Shown here: positions 1-15,879 of the stretch, one piece after another
Layout: each line of letters starts with the position of its first letter
Numbering within the stretch: position 1 is the first letter of the stretch
DNA from: an uncultured archaeon
GTDB taxonomy: Archaea > Iainarchaeota > Iainarchaeia > Iainarchaeales > CSSED10-239
Length of the DNA: 15,879 bases
NCBI GenBank assembly: GCA_964468895.1
Contig: CAYXWT010000010.1
Coordinates: 4,251-20,129 of the forward strand
Direction of reading: 5' to 3'
Position numbers and translations under genes: made by a program
Notes under the pieces: generated by a model
What the model was told of the DNA's origin: nothing
What the model saw: the letters and a program-made list of their open reading frames with translations, nothing else
Database searches by the model: none

Positions 1-644
1 AATATTTTATTACCTTTAGAAATAACACTTATAACATCTTGTGTTGTATTAGGATTACATAAATAATATTGAGATCCTTCATTAGTATAATAAGTCTGAT
101 ATTTATAATCTGCATTTTCATCGCTAGCTTCAGAAAATAGAGTTTTTTTAATCATAAAGAAATGAAATAAATCAGTACTTGTGCTTATATTTGTACCTGT
201 ATTTAATAAGTAAAATGTATAATCATATGAATCTAATGGTCTCATAATAGACTTTATAGTTTGAAATAAATTAAATTTTGCAATATTTTCATTATCAGTT
301 GTATTTAGTGCATTTATGTCTGATCCTGTTGCTCCAATATGTCCATCTGCAAAAAAATCTTGTTTGATAGCAACAATTAAATAATCTTTGGCAACAGGTT
401 TATCTAAATTTAAATCAAAGTCTAATGGAACAGTAGTGTAAAATATAGTTTTCATAGCTGAATTAGTATATTCTTGAAAATATAAATTTGAAATACTTTC
501 TTGAACTCTAAGTCCATAAGTTGAAGAATATCTAAATAATAAAACACACAAACTAACAATTATAATTAAGAAAAATAAAGAATCTGTAACTGCAGCTTGA
601 GCTTTATTTTTTTTCAAACTTATTTTTGAAATTATTTGGTTCAT
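1..644 (-). CDS. Pilin-like protein with archaeal class III (prepilin-type) signal peptide; partial, C-terminus lies beyond the left window edge
   Basis: Not in the supplied ORF track because it is incomplete. Hand translation of the minus strand from ATG 644-642 stays open to base 3 (214 codons, no stop): MNQIISKISLKKNKA|QAAVTDSLFFLIIIVSLCVLLFRYSS... It has a basic leader, a K-A-Q cleavage-type motif, then a ~20-residue hydrophobic helix. The start lies 3 nt after the stop (648-650) of the upstream gene. Confidence 0.7.
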   Translation of the reverse strand, partial: MNQIISKISLKKNKAQAAVTDSLFFLIIIVSLCVLLFRYSSTYGLRVQESISNLYFQEYTNSAMKTIFYTTVPLDFDLNLDKPVAKDYLIVAIKQDFFADGHIGATGSDINALNTTDNENIAKFNLFQTIKSIMRPLDSYDYTFYLLNTGTNISTSTDLFHFFMIKKTLFSEASDENADYKYQTYYTNEGSQYYLCNPNTTQDVISVISKGNKI

Positions 645-647
645 ATT

Positions 648-1160
648 TTATTTCCAAGTAACTATGTATATTCTTGCTGGATATATAAATTCTGTTTTTT
701 GAACAGTTATTGGGAACATATAAACAACTGTTTCTTTATCATTATTATTTCTAAAATCATTTAAATTAAAACATTGGTAATATTTTTTAACTTCGTTTAT
801 TTCTTGAAAAAGTAAATTTTGATCGCATAAATCTAACTTGTTTAGCCCTCTGTATTTCTCAGAATTTAAATCTAAATCTACTAAAAATGAATTCCAATGA
901 TATTTTGAATTTACTTTTTTACAAGCTTTATCAAAAGCATTCCAATCAGCTATAAGGGGTTCTGATTTCATTGTATTTGCAATTTTTATAGTTTCATTTT
1001 GTAAACTATAAAGATCATTACTATTTTTATAAACATTATAAGTACTCATAAATACAGCAAAAAATATTGTTAATCCTAGAAATATAGGAATTATACTTGG
1101 TAAATCATCACCAATAGCTCCAATATATGCTTTTTTTGATTTTAAAAAATTTAAATTCAT
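648..1160 (-). CDS. Pilin-operon protein with variant class III-like N-terminus (KKA|Y...), 170 aa
   Basis: The ORF track gives 648-1256. I prefer the internal ATG at 1160-1158 (MNLNFLKSKKAYIGAIGDDLPSIIPIFLGLTIFFAVFM...) because the longer form would overlap the upstream gene by 71 nt and would bury the basic-leader plus hydrophobic-helix module. A 25-nt gap separates it from the upstream stop. Confidence 0.6.
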   Translation of the reverse strand: MNLNFLKSKKAYIGAIGDDLPSIIPIFLGLTIFFAVFMSTYNVYKNSNDLYSLQNETIKIANTMKSEPLIADWNAFDKACKKVNSKYHWNSFLVDLDLNSEKYRGLNKLDLCDQNLLFQEINEVKKYYQCFNLNDFRNNNDKETVVYMFPITVQKTEFIYPARIYIVTWK

Positions 1161-1185
1161 TTTTTTCAGATTATAAATTATATTT

Positions 1186-1869
1186 TTAAGTATTACAAGT
1201 TGCTGAATCTTTAGACAGTTCTGGAATCGCACACATACAACTAATGTTTTGATCATCTACTAAAGTATCAGTAAAATCACTATTTATTTGTGCACAACCA
1301 GGGATATTATTTTTATATCCACAGGAAAAAATATATATATGTGGAACTGTATTTATTACTTTTTTTGCAATAGTAATTCTATTATCTATAGAATCTTTTT
1401 TAAGAGTATCAAAATCTAAATAGTAATACTCTCCATCAGACACTTCTTGAAAATTATATTTCCCATCATTATCTTCATTATATTTCCAATCATAGAATTT
1501 TACAACACCATTATAATCAATATCATAAGCAGCAAATATATTTTTTTTCTTATGATCTAATATAGATATTATAAGTTTGTTACCATCATCTCCACTAAAA
1601 TTAGAAATATTAAGAATGTATTTACTATTATTATAATAAGAATCTCCAGAATTAATTTTAATTTTATTTGGAATACTTACATATTTCACATTACAATAGC
1701 TACTACTTTCAATTCCACTTTTTATACTTTCTCCAACTTTATAAGTTAATTCATAACTTTGTCTTGTTCTAAAATTTGAACTAACTGTATTCATAAAAAA
1801 TAAAACAATAGCAGCTATTGCTGTTACAAATATTAACATATTTAATTTAGATAAAGCAAATTCCATCAT
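1186..1869 (-). CDS. Secreted or membrane-anchored pilin-operon protein, 227 aa, 6 Cys, non-canonical N-terminal helix
   Basis: N-terminus MMEFALSKLNMLIFVTAIAAIVLFFMNTV is a hydrophobic helix without the KKAQ motif. The remainder is an Asn/Tyr/Asp-rich globular part with a Cys cluster at the C-terminus (FSCGY..PGCAQ..ISCMCAI..ATCNT). It sits in tandem within the pilin operon, with a 35-nt gap upstream. Confidence 0.55.
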   Translation of the reverse strand: MMEFALSKLNMLIFVTAIAAIVLFFMNTVSSNFRTRQSYELTYKVGESIKSGIESSSYCNVKYVSIPNKIKINSGDSYYNNSKYILNISNFSGDDGNKLIISILDHKKKNIFAAYDIDYNGVVKFYDWKYNEDNDGKYNFQEVSDGEYYYLDFDTLKKDSIDNRITIAKKVINTVPHIYIFSCGYKNNIPGCAQINSDFTDTLVDDQNISCMCAIPELSKDSATCNT

Positions 1870-1904
1870 TTTAAATCAATATTTTATATATTTTTTTAAT
1901 TTAA

Positions 1905-2525
1905 TTAACTTCTAATTTTTTTAAGTAAGCAAACGTGAGTAGATCCACCAATATCTTTTTTAAAAATTTTATATACTCCTGATGATATATTATCAGGATC
2001 TGTATAAGAGTTAGTGGTTGCTCCAGAATTAGGAGTAATTATTTTCCACTCAGGAGTTTTTAGGTTAATACCACAATTTAGTGGATCTGATTCAAAATCT
2101 ACACTTGTTGGTAAATCCATACATAGTGGTGGTATTGGTCTTTTAATACCATTATGTCCATCATCGTAAGTGTATTCTAATAAAGTACAACTATCCATTG
2201 TACCTTGACAATAAGCACTACATTTACTTCTTACAGTATAGGTTCTTAATTTTACAGTTTCATACATTTGATTATAACAAGATTTAGAATCAAAAGAAAT
2301 AGTTTTAATTGTTAAATCTGATCCTAATATAACTTCTCTTAATGCACTTTTAAGTTCACTTAAATCTTGAGTTTTATTTCCAATACAAGTATTTTCAGAT
2401 AAGTTTTTTAAAGCAAAACTACCAGCTAAAAGTACAAATCCCATAAGTATTACTGCAATTAATACTTCAAAAGGAGCTCCAACTTGGGCTTTTTTTTTTA
2501 AACAAAATTTATTTATTAGTATCAT
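1905..2525 (-). CDS. Pilin-like protein with class III signal peptide, 206 aa, Cys-rich (8 Cys in predicted mature part)
   Basis: MILINKFCLKKKA|QVGAPFEVLIAVILMGFVLLAGSF: basic leader, KA|Q motif and hydrophobic helix. The mature part has 8 cysteines. Confidence 0.7.
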   Translation of the reverse strand: MILINKFCLKKKAQVGAPFEVLIAVILMGFVLLAGSFALKNLSENTCIGNKTQDLSELKSALREVILGSDLTIKTISFDSKSCYNQMYETVKLRTYTVRSKCSAYCQGTMDSCTLLEYTYDDGHNGIKRPIPPLCMDLPTSVDFESDPLNCGINLKTPEWKIITPNSGATTNSYTDPDNISSGVYKIFKKDIGGSTHVCLLKKIRS

Positions 2526-2582
2526 ATTTAGAATATATACAATAAAGTATTTATATAATTTAGTATTTATTTTTAAAATAAG

Positions 2583-2596
2583 AAAAATAAAAAAAA
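2583..2596 (-). terminator. Oligo-T tract (T8 and T5 on the minus strand) about 40 nt downstream of the mini-pilin gene; possible archaeal-type terminator or attenuator
   Basis: Plus strand reads aaaaataaaaaaaa, so the minus strand reads ttttttttattttt. It lies in the longest intergenic gap (108 nt) of the pilin operon. Oligo-T is the known archaeal termination signal, but T-runs are common at this base composition. Confidence 0.3.
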
Positions 2597-2633
2597 GTAA
2601 GATATTAATTAAAAATTTAAGAAGAGCTATTTA

Positions 2634-2828
2634 CTACGTAGAATTAGAAGGTAATTTAGACATACTTACAGATGTTTTCATAGAATCTACAAACATAGGT
2701 TTAATTACAGCAATTAAAACAATAGCAACAATTGCAACAATTAAAAGCATATAAAGAGTAGAAGCTGAATCAGCTTGAGCTCTTTTATCTTTTAATATTT
2801 TTTTAAATTCTTCTTTAAAATTTAACAT
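2634..2828 (-). CDS. Mini-pilin: 64-aa class III signal peptide protein (predicted mature ~47 aa)
   Basis: MLNFKEEFKKILKDKRA|QADSASTLYMLLIVAIVAIVLIAVIKPMFVDSMKTSVSMSKLPSNST. It has the KRA|Q motif, one long hydrophobic helix and a short Ser/Thr-rich tail. It starts 10 nt after the stop of the upstream pilin gene. Confidence 0.6.
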   Translation of the reverse strand: MLNFKEEFKKILKDKRAQADSASTLYMLLIVAIVAIVLIAVIKPMFVDSMKTSVSMSKLPSNST

Positions 2829-2838
2829 AATTAATCAT

Positions 2839-3396
2839 TTAACTTTTTGTTGGATAAACTATACAAGCAGTACCAGAATTGTCAAATTCAGTTTCTACAA
2901 AGTCTATATCTTGTAAAGTTGTATCCTCAGAAATATTACCACTATACAATTCATAGGACTTTCTTAATGCAATACGATCATCATCACAAAGTACCCCTAC
3001 TAAATATTTTACAGATTCAGATGTTTTTATTTTCAAAGCTGATATTTCATCTGTACTTAAAACTACAAAATCTGAATCATATCTATGAGGTACTTTAAAC
3101 TTAACTTGATTTGCAGATAGTCCTGTTCCTTGAACAACTGCAGAAGCACTTATATATGGTACATCTTTTGAAGAGAATTTAACTTCAGTAGATTTTAATA
3201 GTACACCTGGATCATCTGGTGCACTTTTTAATAAAGTATTGATTGCATCTGATGGCCCTGTTCCAATGTCTGGCCCATTTATAATCATTGGTAATAATAA
3301 AGCTAATATTGCAAGAGCAACAACTGCTGCAATAAGTAATTGAAATGTTGAAAAGGCTTGTCCTTTTTTAGATTTTAATAAATTTTTAAAACTCAT
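2839..3396 (-). CDS. Pilin-like protein with class III signal peptide, 185 aa
   Basis: MSFKNLLKSKKG|QAFSTFQLLIAAVVALAILALLLPMI is a textbook archaeal prepilin N-terminus. It has the best Shine-Dalgarno of the operon (GGAGG, plus-strand cctcc at 3405-3409, 8 nt before the ATG). The mature part has 2 Cys. Confidence 0.75.
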   Translation of the reverse strand: MSFKNLLKSKKGQAFSTFQLLIAAVVALAILALLLPMIINGPDIGTGPSDAINTLLKSAPDDPGVLLKSTEVKFSSKDVPYISASAVVQGTGLSANQVKFKVPHRYDSDFVVLSTDEISALKIKTSESVKYLVGVLCDDDRIALRKSYELYSGNISEDTTLQDIDFVETEFDNSGTACIVYPTKS

Positions 3397-3489
3397 TTTT
3401 TATTCCTCCAAAAATAATTAATATATTTTTAATAAGTTTATTGTTATACAAAATATATTTAAATATATCTTAATTGTTAGTTGTAATAT
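3397..3489 (-). promoter_or_regulatory. Possible internal promoter plus strong RBS for the 185-aa pilin gene
   Basis: This is a 93-nt gap. The minus strand carries TTTAAATATA (plus-strand coordinates 3463-3454) about 60 nt upstream of the ATG, and GGAGG at 3409-3405. The same TTTAAATATA decamer occurs in the 6796-6974 divergent promoter region (6880-6889). Confidence 0.35.
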
Positions 3490-4008
3490 CTATATAATTA
3501 AATATAAATTATAAAATATAAATGTAATTATAGTAGCTGTTATAACTGTTAATAGAACATCTAAATAATTGATTTTATTATTTTGAAAATAATTATTTTT
3601 ATTATTATTTATAACATACATATCTAAAGATTTATTATAACCAGAAGTTTTGTTATTAGTTTTTATTAAAGCCCAAAAACTACCTTGTATAATTGTACAA
3701 AATGCCCATATAATTATTATTTCATAAAAATAATTTAAAGTTAATATTTTTGAATTTAATAATGTCCAAAATATACTTAATAATATAATTGTTGTAATAC
3801 TTGTAAATAAATATTTTATAAATAATTTAATTTTATAATTATTAGTTATATTTATCATATTATTTAATAACCAACTTAAAATAAAAAAGATTGTCATTAA
3901 AGCAATAACAGAAAATATAACTATAAGTATTATTGAGCCTATAAAATATCCTAAAATTAAAATTATTGCTGCTAATACAAAAAATATTATATTATTTAGT
4001 AATTTCAT
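3490..4008 (-). CDS. Polytopic membrane protein of unknown function embedded in the pilin operon, 172 aa
   Basis: It has about 5 hydrophobic segments (IIFFVLAAIILILGYFIGSIILIVIFSVIALMTIFFILSWLL; LFTSITTIILLSIFWTLL; IIIIWAFCTIIQGSFWALI; VLLTVITATIITFIFYNLYLII). There is no class III motif. Only two Asp residues are present and neither is in a GxGD/GxHD context. Confidence 0.55.
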   Translation of the reverse strand: MKLLNNIIFFVLAAIILILGYFIGSIILIVIFSVIALMTIFFILSWLLNNMINITNNYKIKLFIKYLFTSITTIILLSIFWTLLNSKILTLNYFYEIIIIWAFCTIIQGSFWALIKTNNKTSGYNKSLDMYVINNNKNNYFQNNKINYLDVLLTVITATIITFIFYNLYLII

Positions 4009-4042
4009 AAAAATTCTTTTTTTTAAAATATAAATTATTTAG

Positions 4043-4591
4043 TTAATCGTCAATATATTCTACATTTGGTTTTTTATTAAAAAATATAACACAATATACA
4101 GGACATTGTTTTAGTTCTGTAGAATCATAAATTATATCATGATATTCATTTATTTCATCATCAGTTATGGGCGCATCTTCAAAATCACAATAAGTATAAA
4201 CATTCATTTTCTTGAACTTGCCTTGAATATTAAGGATGTTACTAGCAGTATCTTCTTTAAAACCTGGTCCAGGTACTAACTTAAAACATTCTTTGTCTAT
4301 TCCAGAATAGTTTTCTAGCTTTCTAGTACTAATAGTTCCTGAAAGTAATAAATCATCAATTACAAATTCTTTTTTTGTACTAATACCTACTGCTTTAGTA
4401 GCTGAAATTATTCCATCTTTAAATTTTTGATTACTTATTAATAAAGATTTTTCATTTATAGATTGAACCATACTATAAATTACAACTAAAAAAGCTAATG
4501 CTAAAACAAAAGCTATTAATAATCTATAAGCTTCAAAAGCTTGAGCTTTTTTTGAAAGTTTAATAAAGTTTTTTAATTTTAAATATTTCAT
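4043..4591 (-). CDS. Pilin-like protein with class III signal peptide, 182 aa
   Basis: MKYLKLKNFIKLSKKA|QAFEAYRLLIAFVLALAFLVVIYSMV: basic leader, KA|Q motif and hydrophobic helix. The mature part has 4 Cys. It starts 26 nt downstream of the platform gene. Confidence 0.75.
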   Translation of the reverse strand: MKYLKLKNFIKLSKKAQAFEAYRLLIAFVLALAFLVVIYSMVQSINEKSLLISNQKFKDGIISATKAVGISTKKEFVIDDLLLSGTISTRKLENYSGIDKECFKLVPGPGFKEDTASNILNIQGKFKKMNVYTYCDFEDAPITDDEINEYHDIIYDSTELKQCPVYCVIFFNKKPNVEYIDD

Positions 4592-4617
4592 AATTTATTT
4601 TCTTTCAAGTTATTTTT

Positions 4618-6795
4618 TTAAAATATCATACTAGATAACATTACTGTAATTATAAATAAAGTAATTGCAACAGGAAGAGTTTGAGCAATTCTTAATTTTA
4701 CAAGTGTCATATTGTCTTGTTCAATCATAGTTGTAAAATAAGTCATAATTATAACTATTTGTACAACGTAAATTGCAACAATAATAGTAAATTCAGTAGT
4801 TGTTGCTAATTGACTTACAACTTCAGTATTAATAGAACCCATACTAGTCATAGAACTAGTATTTATGTTAGCACCCATAGAGCCACCTACATCTTTAATA
4901 CTTTCTAAAGATGCTTCCATATCTTTTAATGTTCCACTATTAGCTATAGAATATAAAGTAGAAGTTACAACTTTTTGAAGAGAAGTTGTTATACCTAAAA
5001 CTATTGGTGTAATAAATTTAGACATACTTGATAAAGTTGAAGTTACACTTGTAATTAAATTTGTTAAAGTTTTATTAACATCATCTGTATTTCTAAGTTG
5101 CATAGAGTAAGACATTAAAGTTTTAGCAGCAACATTAACTCCTAATTGAACAGAATCACTTAGAAGTTGCATAGCACTATTAATTATATTAGAAGGATTA
5201 TTTTTAAGAGCACCATAACTTTTATCAAATAAAGCAGAATGTAAATTAAGTCCTAATATTTTAATATTATCTATAGTTTTTCCAAATATGCTTTGGGCTA
5301 TTAAAGAATTTGGTAAAAAGGATCTGGTATGCTCTAAAGCATCTTCAATAGGTTTATTTTCACCTAATCTACTTGCAATAATATAAAGAGCATCTTTAAA
5401 TTCATCTTCCATTTTTTCAGTTTTAAGTTGTATTTTTCTTTTGTAAATACTAACTACATAACACCATAAAGAAATTGCTAAACAAATTGTAATTAATATA
5501 CCATTAATTACATAATATGGTGTAACATCATTTTCTGGTTGTGACCAAAATTCATTTTCTTGATCTTTACTTTCAAATTCTGGATTTTCAGGGTCATATC
5601 CAGATTCTAATAATATTTTTCCTTTAGTAACTCCAAATTGGTTTTGTAGATATATACTACCTCCAATTCCTCCAACTAATAAAACTATTAAAATAAAAAA
5701 TACATTTAAATATTTTGAACCTATTTTAAATGTGTTTTTTGGAGGTAAATCAGGATGAGAATCTGGAATTTTTGGAGGAATATAAGTAGCAGGTCTTTTT
5801 TTAATTACACTTTTAGCATATACATAACATCCAATAGGTAATGCTATATTGTAAATTAATACTAAATAAACTGATTTAGCTAAAGCAGAACCAGAAAAAG
5901 CAGAACCTACTGGTAAAATAATAATTAATAATAAAGGTAATAATACTCCTAAATAAAACATAGCCATTGTTGGTTGACTTAAAGTTCTTGCATAATCTTC
6001 TAATTTATCTTTTATAGAAGACAAAGTATCTGCCATTGTTTGGTCTAATAATTGATATCTTTTAGCTTCTGAACTTTCAATTACTGAAGCTCTAATTTTC
6101 ATAAGTCCTTTTTTAAGTTCTATTGAAACATCTCCCCATTTATATGCAAGTTCGTCTATAGCTTGAGCAACACTGTTTTTAATTCCAACTTTAACTTCCC
6201 AAAGTAATTTTTTTAAATCTTCAGATATTTTTCCATGACCTCTATTGGAAGCAAATTCAATAGCTTTTTCTAAATTTGGTACTAATTTCATAGACATTAT
6301 TAGATAGCCCATAATTTCAGGAACAAAAGTTAATGCTTTTATTTTTTCATCATCAACTTTAGAAAAAGGGAAATTTTGAACATTTTTAAAAATTATTAAA
6401 AATATAGTTACAGGAATTGCAATACAAATGAAATATCCCATCATTATATTTCCAAACAATTCTGCAAGAGGAGCTAATAGATAACTCATAGCTATAGCTA
6501 TTAAAATAATTGCTAAAAAAACACCAAATATTAAAGTAAATTTAATAGTTGCATTATATTCTTCTGCACTTAAATCCCAATTTAAAAAACTAATTGCTTT
6601 TTCTAATTTTGAAGAATATTTTGTGTTCTTTCCAAGACCTGGAAATTTAGAATAAATTTTTTTGCAAAATTTAACATATGGATGTAATTTTCTAGTAGTT
6701 AATTTATCTACACCAGAACTGAAATCTCTAGAGTCTACTGATATTGAACTATATATTTTTCCAGGATTTTCAAAATTATTATCTTTTATAGCCAT
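4618..6795 (-). CDS. Type IV pilus/archaellum-type polytopic membrane platform protein (FlaJ/TadC/PilC-like), 725 aa
   Basis: It has multiple TM helices (e.g. FTLIFGVFLAIILIAIAMSYLL, MFYLGVLLPLLLIIILPV, VFFILIVLLVGGIGGSIYL, YYVINGILITICLAISLWCYVV, FTIIVAIYVVQIVIIMTYF, LPVAITLFIITVMLSSMIF). These bracket two soluble helical segments (..NLEKAIEFASNRGHGKISEDLKKLLWEVKVGIKNSVAQAIDELA.. and ..FKDALYIIASRLGENKPIEDALEHTRSF..). That is the duplicated T2SSF-like layout. It is the first gene of the pilin operon. The call rests on architecture and context, not on a search. Confidence 0.65.
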   Translation of the reverse strand: MAIKDNNFENPGKIYSSISVDSRDFSSGVDKLTTRKLHPYVKFCKKIYSKFPGLGKNTKYSSKLEKAISFLNWDLSAEEYNATIKFTLIFGVFLAIILIAIAMSYLLAPLAELFGNIMMGYFICIAIPVTIFLIIFKNVQNFPFSKVDDEKIKALTFVPEIMGYLIMSMKLVPNLEKAIEFASNRGHGKISEDLKKLLWEVKVGIKNSVAQAIDELAYKWGDVSIELKKGLMKIRASVIESSEAKRYQLLDQTMADTLSSIKDKLEDYARTLSQPTMAMFYLGVLLPLLLIIILPVGSAFSGSALAKSVYLVLIYNIALPIGCYVYAKSVIKKRPATYIPPKIPDSHPDLPPKNTFKIGSKYLNVFFILIVLLVGGIGGSIYLQNQFGVTKGKILLESGYDPENPEFESKDQENEFWSQPENDVTPYYVINGILITICLAISLWCYVVSIYKRKIQLKTEKMEDEFKDALYIIASRLGENKPIEDALEHTRSFLPNSLIAQSIFGKTIDNIKILGLNLHSALFDKSYGALKNNPSNIINSAMQLLSDSVQLGVNVAAKTLMSYSMQLRNTDDVNKTLTNLITSVTSTLSSMSKFITPIVLGITTSLQKVVTSTLYSIANSGTLKDMEASLESIKDVGGSMGANINTSSMTSMGSINTEVVSQLATTTEFTIIVAIYVVQIVIIMTYFTTMIEQDNMTLVKLRIAQTLPVAITLFIITVMLSSMIF

Positions 6796-7201: not shown

Positions 7202-8080
7202 ATGTATAATTCTAAAAAATTAAATTTTGGCACAGCAGGAATTCCACATAGTACTTTATTAAATTATCCAAAATCTAAAAATGGAACTGCTGATGGTATT
7301 AATGAAGCTAGTAATTTAGATTTAGATGCTTTAGAAATTGAATTTGTAAGAAGTGTTTATCTTAAAAATACAAGTTTAGAAAAAATTGAAGAAATAAAAT
7401 CTAATTCTATTTCTAAAAATATTTCTTTAAGTATACATGCACCATATTTTATAAATTTAAATGCAAATGAAGATCATAAAATTACAAATAGTATTAATTA
7501 TGTTGTAAATTCTTTAATTGTTGGACAAAAAATAAATGCCAAAATAGTTTTATTTCATCCAGGTTATTTTTTAAAACAAGAAAGAAAAACAGTTTTAGAA
7601 ACTATTAATAATAATCTTAATAAACTATTAGATGAATTTGATTCTAAAAAAGAAAGTAATTTTAAAATAAAACTGGGTTTAGAATTAACAGGTAAAGAAA
7701 CACAAGTTGGTTCTTTAGACGATTTATTTTATTTTTATGATCATCTAAAAACAAGAAATATAGTTCCTGTTATTGATTTTGCACATGTACATGCAAGATA
7801 TAATGGTTATTTCAAATCTAAAAATCAAGTAGATACTTTTTTTTCTAATTTTAGTTCTTATCCTGAATTATTAAATAATATACACACACATTTATCAGGT
7901 ATAGAATATACTTTTAAAGGAGAGCGAAAACATTTAATGTTAAAAGAAAGTGATATGCCTTACAAAGAAATTTTGGAAAAACTTAAAGAATTAAAAGTAA
8001 GTGGAACTATTATTTGTGAAAGTCCAAATCCCCAAAGCGATGCAATATTATTAAAAAAAACATATGACGATTTATTTTAA
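7202..8080 (+). CDS. nfo: Endonuclease IV-type AP endonuclease / xylose-isomerase-like TIM-barrel protein, 292 aa
   Basis: The ordered motifs resemble the Nfo metal-ligand series: FGTAGIP, SIHAPYFINL, VLFHPG, LGLELTG, IDFAHVHAR, HTHLSGIEY, ERKHL, ICESP. Confidence 0.7.
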   Translation: MYNSKKLNFGTAGIPHSTLLNYPKSKNGTADGINEASNLDLDALEIEFVRSVYLKNTSLEKIEEIKSNSISKNISLSIHAPYFINLNANEDHKITNSINYVVNSLIVGQKINAKIVLFHPGYFLKQERKTVLETINNNLNKLLDEFDSKKESNFKIKLGLELTGKETQVGSLDDLFYFYDHLKTRNIVPVIDFAHVHARYNGYFKSKNQVDTFFSNFSSYPELLNNIHTHLSGIEYTFKGERKHLMLKESDMPYKEILEKLKELKVSGTIICESPNPQSDAILLKKTYDDLF

Positions 8081-8730
8081 CCTCTATAAGTTGGTATAGT
8101 ATAAGTCTTAGTTACAATATCTTTAATCATTTTATAAAGATTTAAAATCTCATAATTATTATTGTTACTATTTCTTTCAAGTATTTGTACAATATTTGCT
8201 AATGTATTAGTAATCATATCTGATTTATCTGCAATGTTAATTACTTTCTTTAATTTACGGTCATAATTAGCATATTTTAATTTAGGTATGATTTTATATT
8301 CTATTAAAAATAAGCGTCTAAATTGATTAATATAATTGGCTTCATTATTACTAAGTTCATTTTTACAAAATTGAGTAAATACTATATTACATTCTTTTTG
8401 ATCACTACATTTAGAGATTTTATTATTTAAAGAACATAATTTATTATAAAATTCTTTATAAACAATATTATTTTCTTTAATTCTAAGATCTAAATTGTCT
8501 ATAATATATTTAGAAAATTTTCTATAATCTTTTGGATTTGTGTCATGTAGTTCACTTGCTTTGTTGTTTTCTTTTAAAATCCGCATTATTTCAGAATTAG
8601 TATATTTAACTTTATTTATGTTTTTAAGATCCATTAGTAATCCAGGTACACATAAAGCTTCAATTCTATATTTGTTATACTCTTTAGATTTTAAAACTTT
8701 AGTTTTAGGAAATTTGATAACTGGACACAT
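8077..8730 (-). CDS. Hypothetical protein, 217 aa, Lys/Asn-rich, no recognised domain
   Basis: It is a long ORF 17 nt downstream of the zinc-ribbon gene on the same strand. Its stop overlaps the stop of the convergent nfo-like gene within TTAA 8077-8080. Confidence 0.55.
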   Translation of the reverse strand: MCPVIKFPKTKVLKSKEYNKYRIEALCVPGLLMDLKNINKVKYTNSEIMRILKENNKASELHDTNPKDYRKFSKYIIDNLDLRIKENNIVYKEFYNKLCSLNNKISKCSDQKECNIVFTQFCKNELSNNEANYINQFRRLFLIEYKIIPKLKYANYDRKLKKVINIADKSDMITNTLANIVQILERNSNNNNYEILNLYKMIKDIVTKTYTIPTYRG

Positions 8731-9032: not shown

Positions 9033-9180
9033 AATCTATACCTTCTATATTTTTTTTAAAATAAATTTAAATAATTTCTATTACAATATATAAAAAAGGA
9101 GTATATGTTTATAAATATATTGTACTAAATTTATTTAATTTAATAATTGTTTAAAGTAATTTAAAAGTAAATGATAAATT
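9033..9180. promoter_or_regulatory. Divergent promoter region (zinc-ribbon operon on the minus strand, pilus ATPase operon on the plus strand)
   Basis: This is a 148-nt gap between divergent starts. The TATA-like ATGTTTATAAATA at 9105-9117 starts 76 nt upstream of ATG 9181. The identical 13-mer starts 77 nt upstream of the gene at 13842. Confidence 0.4.
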
Positions 9181-10590
9181 ATGGAAAAGACACATAAAAT
9201 TTATTTTAATAAAAAATATAATCTGATTATTACTAAAATTAAAGATTATAATTTAAAAAAAGAAGATATTAAAGAATATTTTCATAAAAACAAACTTGAT
9301 GATTTTGATAATAGTAGTATAGAAATAATTAATACAATAAATTCTTGGAATATAGGTATTATACTTAAAGATAATAAAATTTCTGAAAATATAAATTATC
9401 TATCTAATTATTTAAATAAAAATTTTGCAAAATACGTTGTTGATTATATTTGTGGATATGGAAAGCTTACAAATATTATGGATGATCCTAATATAGAAGA
9501 AATAATGATTAATAATTATGAAGAAATTTTTATTTTAACTAGAGATTCTAAAAAGTATGTAACTGATATTATTTTTACTTTAAAAGAATATGAAGATTTT
9601 TTAAGTGTTATTAAAAAAACTATAAATTCTGATTTTAAAAAAAGGTTTTTTATAGATGGAATGCTTCCTAATAATTCTAGAATTAATATTGTTTCTAAAG
9701 AAATTGGTTTAGTTAATATTATTACTATTAGAAAATTTACCAAAAAGCCACTTACAATATTAAATTTAATTAAAAGTAATACTTTAAATTTAGATGCTGC
9801 AGCTTATTTGTGGACTGTGGCAGATGGTTTTGCTTTAAGACCAGCAAATATTTTTATTTGTGGTGGTACTAGTAGTGGTAAAACCACGTTTTTAAATATT
9901 TTGTTAGATTTTATTAATCCAAATTCAAGAATTGTTTTAATAGAAGATACTAGAGAGATAGATTTAAGTGCTTTTAAAGATTCTATTAGTTTAGTTTCAG
10001 ATATATCTAATCCTAATAGTTTACTTGAAGTTACTATTAATACTCTTAGAATGAGACCAGATAGAATCATAATTGGAGAAGTTAGAGGTAAAGAAGCACA
10101 AGGCCTATTTGCTGCAATGGATACTGGTCATGAAGGTTGTATGACAACTTTACATGCTAATAATAGTAATGATGTGATAACTAAATTAACTTCAAAACCT
10201 TTAGAAATTCCTGAAGTGAGTATAAATTTATTAGATGTTATTGTTATATTAAAAAGAAAAATTGTAAATGGTAAAGTTCAAAGATATGTTTCTGAAATTT
10301 CAGAAATTCAAAGAGTTGGAAATATAAATATTAATAAAATATATGATTCTGAAAATAGAAATAATCTTAAATTAAATTTTATGTCTTCTTCTTTTTTAGA
10401 AAAATTATGTGTTTTACTTAATATTTCTAAAAAAGATTTACAGAAAATAATTTTATATAGATGTGCTATTTTAGAAGAACTTCTAAATAAAGATAATATT
10501 GATAGTGTAAGTTTTAGAAAAATAATTGCAAATCTTCCTGGTTACAAGGAAATTTTAATAAATATGAATAAAATAGGTGAAAAAAAATGA
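9181..10590 (+). CDS. Type II/IV secretion-family ATPase (FlaI/TadA/CpaF/PilB-like pilus assembly ATPase), 469 aa
   Basis: Walker A GGTSSGKTT (nt 9862-9888). Asp box VLIEDTREI. Walker B region RPDRIIIGEVRG (10054-10089). His box GHEGCMTTLHAN (10126-10161). N-terminal-domain motif DPNIEEIMINNYEEIFI. Confidence 0.85.
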   Translation: MEKTHKIYFNKKYNLIITKIKDYNLKKEDIKEYFHKNKLDDFDNSSIEIINTINSWNIGIILKDNKISENINYLSNYLNKNFAKYVVDYICGYGKLTNIMDDPNIEEIMINNYEEIFILTRDSKKYVTDIIFTLKEYEDFLSVIKKTINSDFKKRFFIDGMLPNNSRINIVSKEIGLVNIITIRKFTKKPLTILNLIKSNTLNLDAAAYLWTVADGFALRPANIFICGGTSSGKTTFLNILLDFINPNSRIVLIEDTREIDLSAFKDSISLVSDISNPNSLLEVTINTLRMRPDRIIIGEVRGKEAQGLFAAMDTGHEGCMTTLHANNSNDVITKLTSKPLEIPEVSINLLDVIVILKRKIVNGKVQRYVSEISEIQRVGNININKIYDSENRNNLKLNFMSSSFLEKLCVLLNISKKDLQKIILYRCAILEELLNKDNIDSVSFRKIIANLPGYKEILINMNKIGEKK

Positions 10591-11786
10591 ATATTCCCAA
10601 TGATGTAGGTGTAGTAAGTTTTGGTTTAAAAACAGGTATTATTACTTTTGATGATAATATTATTGATGTAGTAGATAAATCTATTGAAAAAAATATAAAT
10701 GATCATCCAGATACTATTCAAGATAAAGATATTATTTGTATTACTGAAGCAGTTGTTGCTATTACTCAACATAATTATGTAAAACTAGAAGATATTTCTA
10801 ATCAAATTAGAGAAAAATTAAATTTAAAAGAAAACTCAACTTTAGGTATAATGTATCCAATTTTATCTAGAAATAGATTTTCTTTAATTTTAAAAGCAAT
10901 AGCTAAAGTTGTTCCAAAAGGAAAAGTAATTATACAGCTATTATTTCCTGATGATGAACAAGGTAATCCAATTTTAGCAAAAGATTATAGAAAAAAATTT
11001 GGGAAATTGTTTGAAGATAAAATTACTCTTGAAGATATTGGTAATAATAGATTTATACATCCAGAAACAGGTGTAGATTATATTAAATATTATAAAGAAT
11101 TAATAGAATCACAAGGTTCTAGTTGTGAAATTTATCTAGCTAATTCCACAAAATATATGGTTGAAAATAATCCTGATGGTGTTCTTGTTTCAAATGTTCA
11201 TCATAGAATTGATACTTTAGAAAATTTAAAAAATAGAGATTATAATAATGTAATAACTCTTCAAGATATTTTTTCAGATTCTACTAAAGAAGTTTATTGT
11301 AAATATGGTCTACTTGGTTCTAATATATTAGATCCAGATAACAATTTATTAAAATTAGGTCCAAAAGATTGTGATAATGTTTGTGAAAAAGTAAAAGAAA
11401 GAATTAAAGAAAAATATAATAAAGATGTAGAAGTTATAATTTATGGTGATGGTGCTTATAAAGATCCTGAAAGCGGTATTTATGAACTTGCAGATCCAGT
11501 AAGTGCATTTGGAACTACTAAGGCTATTTCTTCAAATAATAGAATTGGTGTTAAAACAAAGTATCTTATGCAAAAATTATATAATCAAGGTAAAACTAAA
11601 GCAGAAATACTTGAATTTATTAAACAAGAAAAACAAAGAATAATGGATGAACAAAAGAAAGATGATTATTGTTCAGAAGGAACTACTCCAAGAAAAATAA
11701 AAAATTTAGTTTCAAGTTTAGCAGATCTTATAAGTGGTAGTGCTGACTCTAATACTCCTGTAGTAATAGTAAGAGGTTTTCTATAA
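10587..11786 (+). CDS. CofE-like protein (F420-0:gamma-glutamyl ligase family fold) with a large internal insertion, 399 aa
   Basis: The start overlaps the ATPase stop (ATGA, 10587-10590). Segments resembling archaeal CofE occur in the correct order: DIICITEAVVAITQHNY (cf. VVxSxVxSKAEGR), YGLLGSNILD (cf. NAGIDxSN), VEVIIYGDGAYKD (cf. VIITDTxGR), and the C-terminal SSLADLISGSADSNTPVVIVRGF (cf. AAxANLxMGExxxGIPxVVVRG). This comparison is from memory, with no search. Confidence 0.5.
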   Translation: MNIPNDVGVVSFGLKTGIITFDDNIIDVVDKSIEKNINDHPDTIQDKDIICITEAVVAITQHNYVKLEDISNQIREKLNLKENSTLGIMYPILSRNRFSLILKAIAKVVPKGKVIIQLLFPDDEQGNPILAKDYRKKFGKLFEDKITLEDIGNNRFIHPETGVDYIKYYKELIESQGSSCEIYLANSTKYMVENNPDGVLVSNVHHRIDTLENLKNRDYNNVITLQDIFSDSTKEVYCKYGLLGSNILDPDNNLLKLGPKDCDNVCEKVKERIKEKYNKDVEVIIYGDGAYKDPESGIYELADPVSAFGTTKAISSNNRIGVKTKYLMQKLYNQGKTKAEILEFIKQEKQRIMDEQKKDDYCSEGTTPRKIKNLVSSLADLISGSADSNTPVVIVRGFL

Positions 11787-11797
11787 ATATAAAAGTG

Positions 11798-12568
11798 ATG
11801 AATAAAATGGTTCAAACAGTTTTTTTACTTACAGATTATAAAAATTATAATCAAGTTATAAAAGAAGCAATTAATGAAAGTCATAAAAATATTAATTTTG
11901 AAGTATTTGATGATCCTTATCAATTAGAAGAGGTTCTTAAAGAAAGGAAACCAGATTTATTAATTGCGGAAATTGATTCTTTTAAAAATAGTAAACTTTA
12001 TAGAGAATTTAGTAGACCTTTAAATAGAGTTTTATGTGAACTTGCAAATAAAAATAAATTGTCAATTTTAAATCCAGGTCATGTTATGAATACAAATTTA
12101 GAGGATTTAAGATTAGTAAAAAATATGATTGTTAAATATGTTTTACCCAAAATTGACAATATTTCTAAAATAGAACCTATTAGTGTTGCTGAAATTAAAC
12201 AAAGATTATATAGTCATAAATTAAAATCTGTAGAACATTTAATGGAATCTCATAGTCATAGTGCGAAAGAATATGCTCATTTAAAAAGATTAAAAGAAAA
12301 TTATAAAAATCTAATAAATAAAAATAATAGTTCATCTTTACAGCTTAAAATAAAAATTTTATCCATCGAATCTAAATTTATTAAAGATTTTCTTAGAAAT
12401 AAAGATTTTTATGTTAATAATAGAGTTAAAAATAATTCTCTGAAAACAGTTTTTGAAAGAGGTTTGAAAATAGAAAAAGAAATAGCTATTTTAAGAAAGA
12501 AAACTTCTTTAAATAACAATAGACATAAGCCTTTATTAGCTAAAAGAATAAAACATCATTTAAAATAA
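11798..12568 (+). CDS. Hypothetical protein; possible degenerate receiver-like N-terminal domain plus basic coiled-coil C-terminus, ~256 aa
   Basis: The ORF track starts at GTG 11795. ATG 11798 (or 11807) is more likely. The N-terminus shows a beta-alpha alternation resembling CheY-like domains (VFLLTDY.., INFEVF.., KPDLLIAEID.., KYVLPK). The C-terminal half is Lys/Asn-rich and helical (..LKRLKENYKNLINK.., KPLLAKRIKHHLK). It starts 11 nt after the CofE-like gene. Confidence 0.55.
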   Translation: MNKMVQTVFLLTDYKNYNQVIKEAINESHKNINFEVFDDPYQLEEVLKERKPDLLIAEIDSFKNSKLYREFSRPLNRVLCELANKNKLSILNPGHVMNTNLEDLRLVKNMIVKYVLPKIDNISKIEPISVAEIKQRLYSHKLKSVEHLMESHSHSAKEYAHLKRLKENYKNLINKNNSSSLQLKIKILSIESKFIKDFLRNKDFYVNNRVKNNSLKTVFERGLKIEKEIAILRKKTSLNNNRHKPLLAKRIKHHLK

Positions 12569-13841: not shown

Positions 13842-14735
13842 ATGAATAAAATATTAAAATTTTTAAGTGTATTTTTAATTTTTACAATTATATTTTCTTT
13901 TGTAAATTTAATAAATGCAGATGATTTAAATGATGTAGATTTAGAACAATCTGAAGATTTAATTATAGAACAAGATCTTGCAGATTATTCATCAACAAAT
14001 TATGCTATGAAAATTAGATTAACTCAATTAGAAAATACAGTTAATTTTAAAATTGAACAATTACAAATTATTATAGATAAGTTAAATGAAAATGAAATTA
14101 GTACTGAAGAATTAGAAACTAATTTAGGAAAATTTATTGTATTAAGTGAAGAATTAAAAGTAAAATCAGATGTAGATGAAATAATTGATGCTAAAGAAAC
14201 AACAACTTATTTTATTTCAACTAAACAAGAAAGTGTAGATTTAATGCAAAATTGTAGACAATACTTATTAGAAAATGTTCCTGAACATATTGTTCAAGAA
14301 ACTAGAGAAGAAGTACATAACTATAGAAAAGAAATTAAAGTTGAACAAAAAGAAAAGATGAAAAATCTTGTTAAAGAACATAATTTAGCTATTAGAAATA
14401 AATATAAAAAAATATTTAGTGATATTAAAGAATCACAAAGTGGAGATACAAATAAATCTATAAATGCTTTGGAGATTAGAAATAGAATTAAAGAACAAAC
14501 TAAAAATAAAATTTTAGAATCTAAAAATTCATTTGTTCAAAATCAAAAAATGCAGATTTTAGAAAATAAAGAAAAAATTGAAAAATATAAACAAAAGAGA
14601 TTAGAAACATTCAATAAATATAAAGATTCTAATAATAACCCACCTGAAATAAATTCTAAAATTAAAAATATTAGAAATAATATTAGATCTAGAATTGCAA
14701 ATAGAAACAATAATGATAATGGTGATATTGAATGA
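13842..14735 (+). CDS. Secreted or membrane-anchored coiled-coil protein, 297 aa, Lys/Glu/Asn-rich
   Basis: The N-terminal signal-like segment is MNKILKFLSVFLIFTIIFSFVNLINA|DD. The rest is heptad-like and charged (..LTQLENTVNFKIEQLQIIIDKLNENEI.., ..KEKMKNLVKEHNLAIRNKYKK..) with a basic Asn/Arg-rich tail. It has a good SD. Confidence 0.65.
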   Translation: MNKILKFLSVFLIFTIIFSFVNLINADDLNDVDLEQSEDLIIEQDLADYSSTNYAMKIRLTQLENTVNFKIEQLQIIIDKLNENEISTEELETNLGKFIVLSEELKVKSDVDEIIDAKETTTYFISTKQESVDLMQNCRQYLLENVPEHIVQETREEVHNYRKEIKVEQKEKMKNLVKEHNLAIRNKYKKIFSDIKESQSGDTNKSINALEIRNRIKEQTKNKILESKNSFVQNQKMQILENKEKIEKYKQKRLETFNKYKDSNNNPPEINSKIKNIRNNIRSRIANRNNNDNGDIE

Positions 14736-14992
14736 ATAAGAAAGTATTAATAATATCTTTTGCAATAGTTTTAATTATTGCAATAGTTTGTGTTTTAAGT
14801 TTAAATTTAAACAAAAAAGAAAATGTAGATGTAGACAAAGTACCAACAACATCAAATAGTGATAATAATTTCTCAGCAGATCAAAATATAACTACTGATG
14901 ACGAGTTATTTTCAGATGATGATATTTCAGAAATTATAGATGAAAACGAAGTAATAGACGATGATGTTGATATAGGAGATTTTTTTGAATAG
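14732..14992 (+). CDS. Small single-pass membrane protein with extremely acidic C-terminal tail, 86 aa
   Basis: The start overlaps the upstream stop (ATGA, 14732-14735). TM segment MNKKVLIISFAIVLIIAIVCVLSL. The last 37 residues contain 12 Asp and 5 Glu (DQNITTDDELFSDDDISEIIDENEVIDDDVDIGDFFE). Confidence 0.55.
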   Translation: MNKKVLIISFAIVLIIAIVCVLSLNLNKKENVDVDKVPTTSNSDNNFSADQNITTDDELFSDDDISEIIDENEVIDDDVDIGDFFE

Positions 14993-15019: not shown

Positions 15020-15130
15020 GTATAGGTTTTTGTTATTCCGCTTAATATAAATTAAGCCGACTAATTAACAAACATTATTTTATAAACACATTACATCTAA
15101 TAATATAATAAATTTTAAATTAGATATATT

Positions 15131-15879
15131 ATGTTCTTTAAAAATAAAAAATCAGTTTCTACAATAATTGCAGCTGTAGTTGTAATCTTAATAGCAGTAA
15201 TTTTATCAACAATTGTTTTAAATTTTGGAAAAAATCTTACCCAAAAAGAAACTCAAAAAGTAACTGAATTTTATAAAGAAGATGCAACCTTAACTGGCTC
15301 AACTTATGTTACTGATAAACATTCTACTTGGTTTAAGTTAAAAAATACTTCTTCAAAATCATTTACTTTTACTAAATACAAAATCATTAGTAATAATGGA
15401 CCTGAATTTTTAAAGTATACATATATAGATTATAATGAACCTATAACTATAGATCCTGGTTATGACGCAATAATTCCATTTGTTTGTTCTCCAGAACGTT
15501 CTTTTAAATTAAGTTTATTAAATTCTGATAATAAAGTAACAACTATTTCTTTGGATAATATTGTAGACTATCAACAAAATCTTTGTGATGATCTTCCAAA
15601 TCCTGTTTGTTTAGGTTTAGTAGATAATGGTAGTGGAGATAGTGTTGATGATCCAATAATTGTTTGTAATGCAGGTGATCTAAATAATGTAAGAAATGGT
15701 TTAGATAAACATTATTTACAAGGAGATAATATTAATTTAGATGTTGAACTATATAATGAAGGAGAAGGTTGGGAACCAATTGGAACTTCAGTAAATCGTT
15801 TTACAGGAAGTATTGATGGTAACGGTTATGTGATAAATAATTTATATATTAATAAACCAGCAATAGATTATATAGGTTT
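15131..15879 (+). CDS. Surface protein with archaellin/Pilin_N-type class III N-terminus and onset of a GLUG-type adhesin region; partial, continues beyond the right window edge
   Basis: Not in the ORF track because it is incomplete. Hand translation from ATG 15131 stays open to the window end (249 codons): MFFKNKKS|VSTIIAAVVVILIAVILSTIVLNFG... The later segment ..IIVCNAGDLNNVRNGLDKHYLQGDNINLDVELYNEGEGWEPIGTSVNRFTGSIDGNGYVINNLYI.. matches the consensus 'L..I...l...Y.L..DIdL....W.PIG....F.G.fDGnGh.I.nL.i' that precedes GLUG repeats in large surface proteins. Confidence 0.65.
   Translation, partial: MFFKNKKSVSTIIAAVVVILIAVILSTIVLNFGKNLTQKETQKVTEFYKEDATLTGSTYVTDKHSTWFKLKNTSSKSFTFTKYKIISNNGPEFLKYTYIDYNEPITIDPGYDAIIPFVCSPERSFKLSLLNSDNKVTTISLDNIVDYQQNLCDDLPNPVCLGLVDNGSGDSVDDPIIVCNAGDLNNVRNGLDKHYLQGDNINLDVELYNEGEGWEPIGTSVNRFTGSIDGNGYVINNLYINKPAIDYIG

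Follow-up and report, generated by a model that had tools for sequence, protein, structure and literature searches.

A probable type IV filament operon with a divergent platform protein and Gln(+1) class III subunits in the Iainarchaeota

DPANN archaea presumably rely on contact with other cells, and the structures that mediate this contact are mostly unknown. Among the described archaeal filaments, the best point of comparison for the system considered here is the Epd pilus of Methanococcus maripaludis. Epd-type (clade 1) systems comprise two TadC genes, major pilins of ~70 amino acids (aa), at least five minor pilins, the prepilin peptidase EppA with nine transmembrane (TM) segments, FleN/MinD, and DUF2341 adhesins (PMC4858521). 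The EppA substrates EpdA-E are processed at RAQI, KGQV, KGQV, KGQL, and KGQI (PMC4371748), and processing requires Gln at position +1 (PMC4390842). In the 2016 census of archaeal type IV pili (Makarova, Koonin and Albers, PMC4858521), neither DPANN nor Diapherotrites occurs as a word; genome papers attribute type IV pili, in general terms, to the reference genomes of Diapherotrites; and an overview of DPANN genomic islands (Makarova, Wolf and Koonin 2019, PMC6393860) outlines FlaI, TadC, and unannotated "dark matter" signal-peptide proteins predicted as pilins. Here, we analyze a stretch of 15,879 nucleotides (nt) from an uncultured archaeon of the Iainarchaeota (assembly GCA_964468895.1, contig CAYXWT010000010.1, positions 4,251 to 20,129; G+C content ~22%), hereafter the window, in which a block of nine genes is most probably the platform and subunit operon of a type IV filament, resembling an archaeal type IV pilus and characteristic of the Iainarchaeota (Diapherotrites, DPANN). 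The kind of filament is known and was anticipated for DPANN, because DPANN pilin islands (PMC6393860) and Diapherotrites type IV pili had already been stated; for the specific architecture with its seven subunit families, we found no description in the literature consulted on archaeal and DPANN type IV pili.

The nine genes, numbered G1 to G9 from the left edge of the window (Table 1), are all encoded on the minus strand within positions 1-6795. According to the listing of open reading frames (ORFs) and their translations, they are separated, in order from the left window edge to G9, by 3, 25, 35, 108, 10, 93, 34, and 26 nt, exactly as listed in the initial annotation, which had been made from the sequence alone. 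The five N-termini quoted there (KNKA/QAAVTD, KKKA/QVGAPFE, DKRA/QADSAS, SKKG/QAFSTF, and SKKA/QAFEAY, the slash marking the predicted cut) are all present in the translations. In G8, G6, G5, G4, and G1, as judged from the translated sequences, a short basic leader, a [KR]-[GA]/Gln junction (KAQA, KGQA, RAQA, KAQV, and KAQA, respectively), and a hydrophobic helix of ~20 residues make up the layout of class III signals. We scored this motif with a scan of our own rather than with FlaFind, counting a protein as positive if [KR][GA]Q occurs among its first 45 residues, preceded by no hydrophobic stretch and followed by a hydrophobic 15-mer. Under this rule, the motif is present in five of the nine operon genes and in none of the 11 other genes of the window; across 85 related loci, it was found in 187 of the 261 members of the five Gln families, compared to 4 of the 2176 remaining ORFs with 60 aa or more. 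The form of the operon junctions, [KR][GA]Q, is identical to that of the EpdA-E sites (PMC4371748), and the EppA-type Gln(+1) signature proposed in the initial annotation is conserved family by family. Next to the locus denoted L037, a 71-aa ORF (9104-9319, plus strand) starting with MNQKA/QSGLEYLMTYGWALVII has the look of a small pilin of the classical DUF361 type.

When one genome per species was scanned (185,579 species, GTDB release 232), 221 stretches encoding relatives of the platform protein G9 were identified, of which 80 loci were kept; the family and motif counts span 85 loci, from the ORFs of which the families were assembled by iterated hmmsearch. The families consist of 79 (G8), 76 (G6), 52 (G5), 47 (G4), 43 (G3), 37 (G2), 39 (G1), and 15 (G7) members, and all are kept across loci with platform identities of 40-69%. 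Among the 41 loci with at least 6.5 kb of sequence downstream of the platform gene, the order G8-(G7)-G6-G5-G4-G3-G2-G1 is kept in at least 27, and some loci are split into a platform-G8-G6-G5 part and a G4-G3-G2-G1 part. The relatives with such loci are Iainarchaeota/Diapherotrites metagenome-assembled genomes (MAGs), including the complete genome of Ca. Forterrea multitransposorum (platform 59% identical), in agreement with the DPANN-like origin that the initial annotation had suspected.

The initial annotation took G9 for a FlaJ/TadC/PilC-like platform protein and proposed to check it against the T2SSF family (PF00482). Taken alone, G9 matches T2SSF with an E-value of 0.052 and 13.9 bits (cut-off 25.2) over residues 174-295, and has no NCBIfam match. 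Its full-length orthologs, however, do pass. Of the 365 scored homologs of G9, the named ones belong to Iainarchaeota/Diapherotrites, with a few labeled Micrarchaeota, or to unclassified archaeal MAGs, and some carry the name "type II secretion system F family protein". T2SSF was matched at E <= 0.01 by 21 of 27 aligned homologs; ten that were checked singly reached 24.5-27.4 bits over nearly the whole profile, always in the equivalent region, and seven of these exceeded the cut-off (25.4-27.4 bits; profile positions 4-125 of 125). Because the orthologs that pass are 44-47% identical to G9 across 99% of its length, G9 belongs to the same family. T2SSF in these orthologs, combined with a T2SSE ATPase encoded directly upstream in distant loci, identifies G9, at the level of sequence comparison, as a very divergent polytopic platform of the TadC/FlaJ/PilC family.

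The protein has a single recognizable T2SSF domain (~174-295) and a second conserved cytoplasmic helical domain (~455-660), at which two homologs show faint Spore_III_AB matches. An AF2 model of G9 (pLDDT 78) is all-helical, with ~8 TM helices, and a Foldseek search of 350,542 chains ranked 3jc8_Ca first, albeit not significantly (E 0.63); this chain was verified as PilC, the sole full-length platform protein in the PDB copy searched. The linkage of the small genes to this platform bears on the possibility that they encode ordinary Sec-dependent membrane or secreted proteins which happen to neighbor a membrane protein. Such a coincidence would accord with the lack of a match to any pilin family model and with the head of G6, for which there is no known pilin neighbor, but the basic-[GA]-Gln junction precedes the hydrophobic segment, which is the class III and not the SPase I layout, and the association with a T2SSF platform and, in distant loci, a T2SSE ATPase, in the same order in most of the loci counted above, renders this explanation extremely improbable.

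The ATPase itself differs between the distant loci and the clade of the window. In 60 of the 67 loci with a platform at most 50% identical to G9, a T2SSE ATPase is encoded upstream of the platform, and the remaining seven have less than 1 kb of upstream sequence. This locus-linked gene mostly ends a few bases before the platform gene and encodes a protein of ~760 aa with an N-terminal extension of ~300 aa, or of ~1270 aa with an intein. The locus ATPase has ~1270-1300 aa in L067 (6106-9966) and in L023, L037, L045, L057, L069, L070, and L074; in L067, the intein lies inside the ATPase core (intein_Nterm, 8.4e-11), and in the seven others, the length together with an ATPase match split in two suggests an intein as well. 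In the window's own clade (17 loci, 58-69% platform identity), a ferredoxin gene and an endonuclease IV-like gene occupy the place of the locus ATPase. The window does encode a secretion ATPase of 469 aa, passed over in the initial annotation, 2.4 kb from the operon and on the opposite strand, which matches Pfam T2SSE (7.7e-30) with an intact Walker A motif (GGTSSGKTT), matches NCBIfam FlaI (1.3e-61), and scores well against TadA-family models. We considered whether this protein is the ortholog of the ~760-aa locus ATPase and rejected the possibility because the two are 24% identical, as opposed to 44-45% for the platforms of the same loci. Orthologs of the window ATPase are 50-57% identical, ~460 aa long, and encoded by stand-alone genes, one of which shares a contig with the pilus locus in GCA_964526055.1, at a distance of ~20 kb, and another of which lies ~2 kb from it in L010. 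In the window's clade, the stand-alone 469-aa ATPase is a candidate motor that probably drives G9 in trans.

The absence of the ~760-aa ATPase from all 17 loci with 58-69% platform identity could also mean that the operon in this clade is a decaying remnant, which lost its dedicated ATPase and assembles nothing. Against such decay, the nine reading frames are all intact, gene order and sequence are kept across the clade (34-74% identity, with conserved motifs and cysteines), and an intact FlaI-type ATPase is retained in these genomes, 2-25 kb from the locus in three cases, making a remnant very improbable. The same ATPase, the best NCBIfam match of which is FlaI, and homologs of which are named FlaI in some sources, might point to a locus for an archaellum, the rotary swimming filament. 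Yet the FlaI match reaches 209 bits against a cut-off of 550, no operon protein matches Arch_flagellin (PF01917), no ArlC/D/E/F/G/H/X-like match was found, and FlaK-type archaellin sites lack Gln at +1 (PMC4371748). With neither archaellins nor the accessory genes found, the archaellum was rejected as a reading of the operon, and the likelihood that we assign to it is negligible.

The surroundings of the window ATPase gene show several further features. It overlaps the next gene, which encodes a CofE-like protein (F420-0:gamma-glutamyl ligase family), by 4 nt (9181-11786, plus strand). In L002, L005, L018, and L088, the same neighborhood (CofE-like, Zn-ribbon, endonuclease IV-like, ferredoxin, platform) is present without the ATPase, and the position of the ATPase gene is therefore specific to the close lineage of the window and L010. 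At the right edge of the window (15128-15879, plus strand, running off the edge), a class III protein of a second kind begins with MFFKNKKS/VSTIIAAVVVILIAVIL; its N-terminus is of the PibD/FlaK type (Arch_flagellin E 0.0027), and GLUG-like repeats come after it. L087 encodes a similarly built protein of 556 aa (Glug 5.7e-19, weak Pilin_N) ~1 kb from an ortholog of the window ATPase. Because the two lie close together in L087, the ATPase may serve, or also serve, the GLUG adhesin-like pilin. A tentative and rather doubtful idea is that the Forterrea-like low-GC clade of the window lost the dedicated long ATPase and shares one stand-alone FlaI-type ATPase between the operon subunits and a second, unrelated class III set, the GLUG-repeat protein at the right edge. 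If that were true, one motor and one platform would handle two subunit sets with different cleavage signatures, Gln(+1) and Val/Ile-Ser, and the shared-motor apparatus would constitute a minimal, streamlined type IV filament. In a host-dependent archaeon, its task might then be contact between cells or the uptake of nucleic acids, and not simply adhesion to surfaces.

G8 (N-terminus SKKA/QAFEAYRLLIAFVLALAFLVVI; family consensus KG/QaFE.FRLLIA over 79 members) and G6 (SKKG/QAFSTFQLLIAAVVALAIL; consensus KG/QAFSTFQLLIAAVVALAIL) are paralogous over ~130 columns (hhalign 99.3%), and the N-terminal ~65 residues of G4 are homologous to both (hhalign 96% and 95%), whereas the remaining families have at most the N-terminal motif in common. 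The operon is thus "paralog-rich", as the initial annotation put it, only with regard to G8 and G6 and the N-terminal region that G4 has in common with them, and the mutual dissimilarity of the C-terminal domains, noted there by eye, is right except for G8 and G6. At E <= 1e-3, the G6 family extends to 663 cluster representatives (clustering at 50% identity), almost all annotated as hypothetical, and its segment G12-L22 is invariant in 63 homologs. G5 (DKRA/QADSASTLYMLLIVAIVAIVLIAVIKPMF; consensus RA/QsEW.SSlYMLIV...VIKPMF) is the most conserved gene of the locus, with 74% identity to L002 compared to 69% for the platform. It is comparable in size to the ~70-aa major pilins of Epd-type systems (PMC4858521) and shows a weak match to Flp_Fap (PF04964; E 0.0095, 16.2 bits, cut-off 32.2), a family matched by one of 140 members of the subunit families (E 0.021). 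G4 (KKKA/QVGAPFEVLIAVILMGF) has the family consensus KG/QESAPFELLVAVIvMGFVI, also recorded as KG/QESAPFELLVAVI, and G1 (KNKA/QAAVTDSLFFLIIIVSLCVLLF; consensus KG/QAAiTDALfFL) has orthologs of 248-283 aa.

Two further families depart from the Gln signature. G3 begins with MMEFALSKLNMLIFVTAIAAIV, with no leader or one of three residues and Phe at the putative +1 position (consensus MlgFtLSKLNLLIlVTAiFAIV, 44 sequences). G2 begins with SKKA/YIGAIGDDLPSIIPIFLGL, also recorded as SKKA/YIGAIGDDLPSIIP, with Tyr or Phe at +1 and the consensus kKG/FIGpIGDDLPSLIP; its mechanical ORF runs from 1256, and the orthologs favor 1160, the start chosen in the initial annotation. Residues 12-25 of G2, [FY]IGxIGDDLPSLIP, which lie between the putative cut and the hydrophobic helix, are almost invariant in 38 orthologs, and because this motif places two acidic residues at positions that are normally hydrophobic in pilins, G2 may not be a conventional pilin. 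After the helix, the six larger families contain near-invariant Cys residues, four in G8, two in G6, eight in G4, four in G3, two in G2, and two in G1, and such even numbers would fit exported, disulfide-bonded heads. G7 is a multi-pass membrane protein without the class III motif and without Pfam or NCBIfam matches, and its family is found in 15 of the 85 loci, all in the clade of the window (at least 58% platform identity). This corrects the initial annotation in that G7 is polytopic and clade-specific rather than a pilin. One or two extra genes of 255-271 aa follow G7 in L005 (13430-14209), L013 (13334-14101), and L031 (13333-14966); together with the clade restriction of G7, they mark the G8-G6 interval as a variable spot of the operon.

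An AF2 model of G6 built from 63 homologs (pLDDT 89, pTM 0.76) has a helix (residues 15-40) directly after the predicted cut at Q13, a second helix (48-61), and then a beta-rich head, in which C137 and C178 are invariant. The modeled structure has the general pilin layout, an N-terminal helix followed by an alpha/beta head, as was anticipated when structure prediction was proposed as a check of the pilin assignment.

Compared to the Epd pili, the locus has, besides a cleavage site of the same form, at least five distinct class III proteins and a very small candidate major subunit (~64-70 aa), as well as a TadC-type platform and, as its probable motor, a FlaI/TadA-type ATPase. Unlike Epd loci, it includes a single platform gene (725-790 aa) rather than two TadC genes, encodes the small subunit inside the operon rather than as a stand-alone gene, and, in relatives, is linked to an ATPase of ~760 aa with the N-terminal extension described above; furthermore, neither the window nor the flanks conserved in relatives encode EppA, FleN/MinD, or a DUF2341 adhesin, the subunits do not match Class_III_signal/DUF361, and Glu is not kept at +5. 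The Tad/Flp pili (TadA/CpaF, TadB/TadC, Flp, TadE/F/G, TadV) similarly combine a very short major subunit, here a candidate, with larger pseudopilin-like genes that follow it, and the TadA-family scores of the ATPase add to this likeness. In contrast, the Flp_Fap match remains far below its cut-off, no TadE-domain match was found, secretin, TadZ, and TadD were not found at this locus, and the cleavage context is Gln(+1) rather than G/xxxxEY. Denise et al. (2019) reportedly proposed that the Tad system was derived from an archaeal Epd-like system.

With the bacterial type IVa pilus and type II secretion systems (PilB-PilC, GspE-GspF), the locus has in common the top, though not significant, fold match of its platform to PilC, subunits consisting of an N-terminal helix and a head with putative disulfide bonds, and a four-gene block, G4-G1, that moves as a unit and, purely by analogy, recalls minor-pilin quartets. 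It differs from them in its archaeal-type leaders and in the lack of PilMNOPQ-type or secretin components, and there is no sequence similarity, Escherichia coli HofC having no match to the platform family profile. The DPANN "dark matter" islands (PMC6393860, Fig. 2A) resemble the locus in the recognizable FlaI and TadC and in the neighboring unannotated signal-peptide proteins; as far as that overview goes, it describes neither the individual families nor a cleavage motif, a gene order, or a distribution.

The components described so far might alternatively build a short pseudopilus for export or uptake, akin to the type II secretion piston, a competence pilus, or the Sulfolobus bindosome, for instance for the uptake of DNA or nucleotides given a minimal metabolism. 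Many distinct "minor" subunits alongside one tiny candidate major subunit would suit such a device, Ca. Forterrea is described as a symbiont with a nucleotide-centered metabolism (PMC5905446), and the window ATPase scores against the models of the bindosome protein BasE and of ComGA, in both cases under the cut-offs. The gene data do not discriminate filament length. Genes for a secretin, a substrate-binding protein, or a competence protein that binds DNA were found neither in the window nor in the conserved flanks, and the nearest match of the cleavage motif is to the Epd pilins, which build real pili. We therefore consider a pseudopilus unlikely.

Several observations weigh against the assignment of the block to a type IV filament. 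The filament is here a prediction from gene content. G9 itself stays under the T2SSF cut-off, a comparison of its N-terminal and C-terminal halves with hhalign detected no second T2SSF repeat, and a PDB sequence search with the platform profile returned nothing meaningful. The locus-linked ~760-aa ATPase is absent from the window's own clade, and the nearby ATPase, on the evidence of sequence identity, is not its ortholog. On the subunit side, Pfam and NCBIfam searches with the nine operon proteins gave only the weak T2SSF and Flp_Fap matches, and none of these proteins matches Class_III_signal/DUF361 (PF04021), Pilin_N, Arch_flagellin, or N_methyl. The suggestion that the small proteins belong to the DUF361/Class_III_signal family has, in fact, failed, given that PF04021 was matched neither by window proteins at E <= 1 nor by 140 members of the seven families at E <= 0.1; among the 25 Pfam families listed for these members at E <= 0.1, TadE and the four models just named are absent. 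Foldseek found no significant neighbor for the head of the G6 model in the PDB (best E 1.2), and PDB sequence searches with the G6 profile and with G5 returned nothing meaningful. The acidic residue that many pilins have at +5 is not kept at this position, being located at +4 in G8, +3 in G5, and +7 in G4, as Asp at +6 in G1, and nowhere in G6. Finally, no prepilin peptidase was found in the window, a lack that the initial annotation did not mention, and a crude test for ORFs with a GxGD motif and at least four TM segments in the flanks of the 85 loci was negative as well; a prepilin peptidase need not be linked to the locus.

In the type IV filament that we favor, subunit precursors would insert into the membrane, where a prepilin peptidase of the A24 family, EppA-like in its specificity and encoded elsewhere, would cut them before the Gln. 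G9 and a hexameric FlaI/TadA-type ATPase, in the window's clade probably the stand-alone protein listed in Table 1, would then extract the mature subunits from the membrane and form a surface filament by stacking them through the N-terminal helices. In analogy to Flp and EpdE, G5 is the candidate major subunit that would make up the bulk of the filament; the G4-G3-G2-G1 group, which travels as a unit, is a candidate priming or tip complex of minor subunits, and G8 and G6 may serve as minor or alternative subunits of larger size. Such a filament would probably be used for adhesion to surfaces or to other cells, possibly including host contact.

Table 1. Genes of the proposed filament operon and the nearby secretion ATPase gene (positions in the window)
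Gene	Position	Strand	Description
G1	<1-644	-	N-terminal 214 aa of a ~250-aa protein; cut by the window edge; pilin-like
G2	648-1160	-	170 aa; Tyr/Phe at +1
G3	1186-1869	-	227 aa; N-terminal anchor
G4	1905-2525	-	206 aa; pilin-like, Cys-rich head
G5	2634-2828	-	64 aa (47 aa after predicted cut); candidate major subunit
G6	2839-3396	-	185 aa; pilin-like, alpha/beta head
G7	3490-4008	-	172 aa; polytopic membrane protein
G8	4043-4591	-	182 aa; pilin-like, G6 paralog
G9	4618-6795	-	725 aa; divergent TadC/FlaJ/PilC-type polytopic platform, assigned via orthologs
ATPase gene	9181-10590	+	469 aa; FlaI/TadA-type secretion ATPase

The flanks of the operon contain additional genes. In relatives, a conserved trio lies beyond G1, that is, past the left edge of the window (for instance, L088 13373-19592, L002 16812-22184, and L018 16666-17935). 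One member, encoded on the opposite strand, has ~220-290 aa and an RRERRxYRK motif at its N-terminus, to which a zinc ribbon at the C-terminus is added in L003; another is a membrane protein (~165-179 aa), and the third is a giant protein of 1500-1770 aa without a Pfam match. The trio may represent further parts of the system, such as an adhesin or a surface-layer protein. In the window itself, two overlapping genes (13842-14992, plus strand) encode proteins that match no family, one of 297 aa, which is rich in Lys and Glu and has a signal-like segment at its N-terminus, and one of 86 aa, which combines a membrane anchor with an acidic tail; the same holds for the 217-aa (8077-8730) and 257-aa (11795-12568) proteins. 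Scans of the window for tRNAs, Rfam families, and tandem repeats yielded nothing relevant.

The locus reveals no new principle. It is conserved across a whole DPANN group, and the seven named families, together with the cleavage signature and the fixed gene order, amount to a concrete annotation rule. The families also provide a target set for cryo-electron tomography, metaproteomics, and multimer modeling, and through them a link can be tested to the EppA-type branch of the archaeal pili, which is thought to be the source of the bacterial Tad pili.

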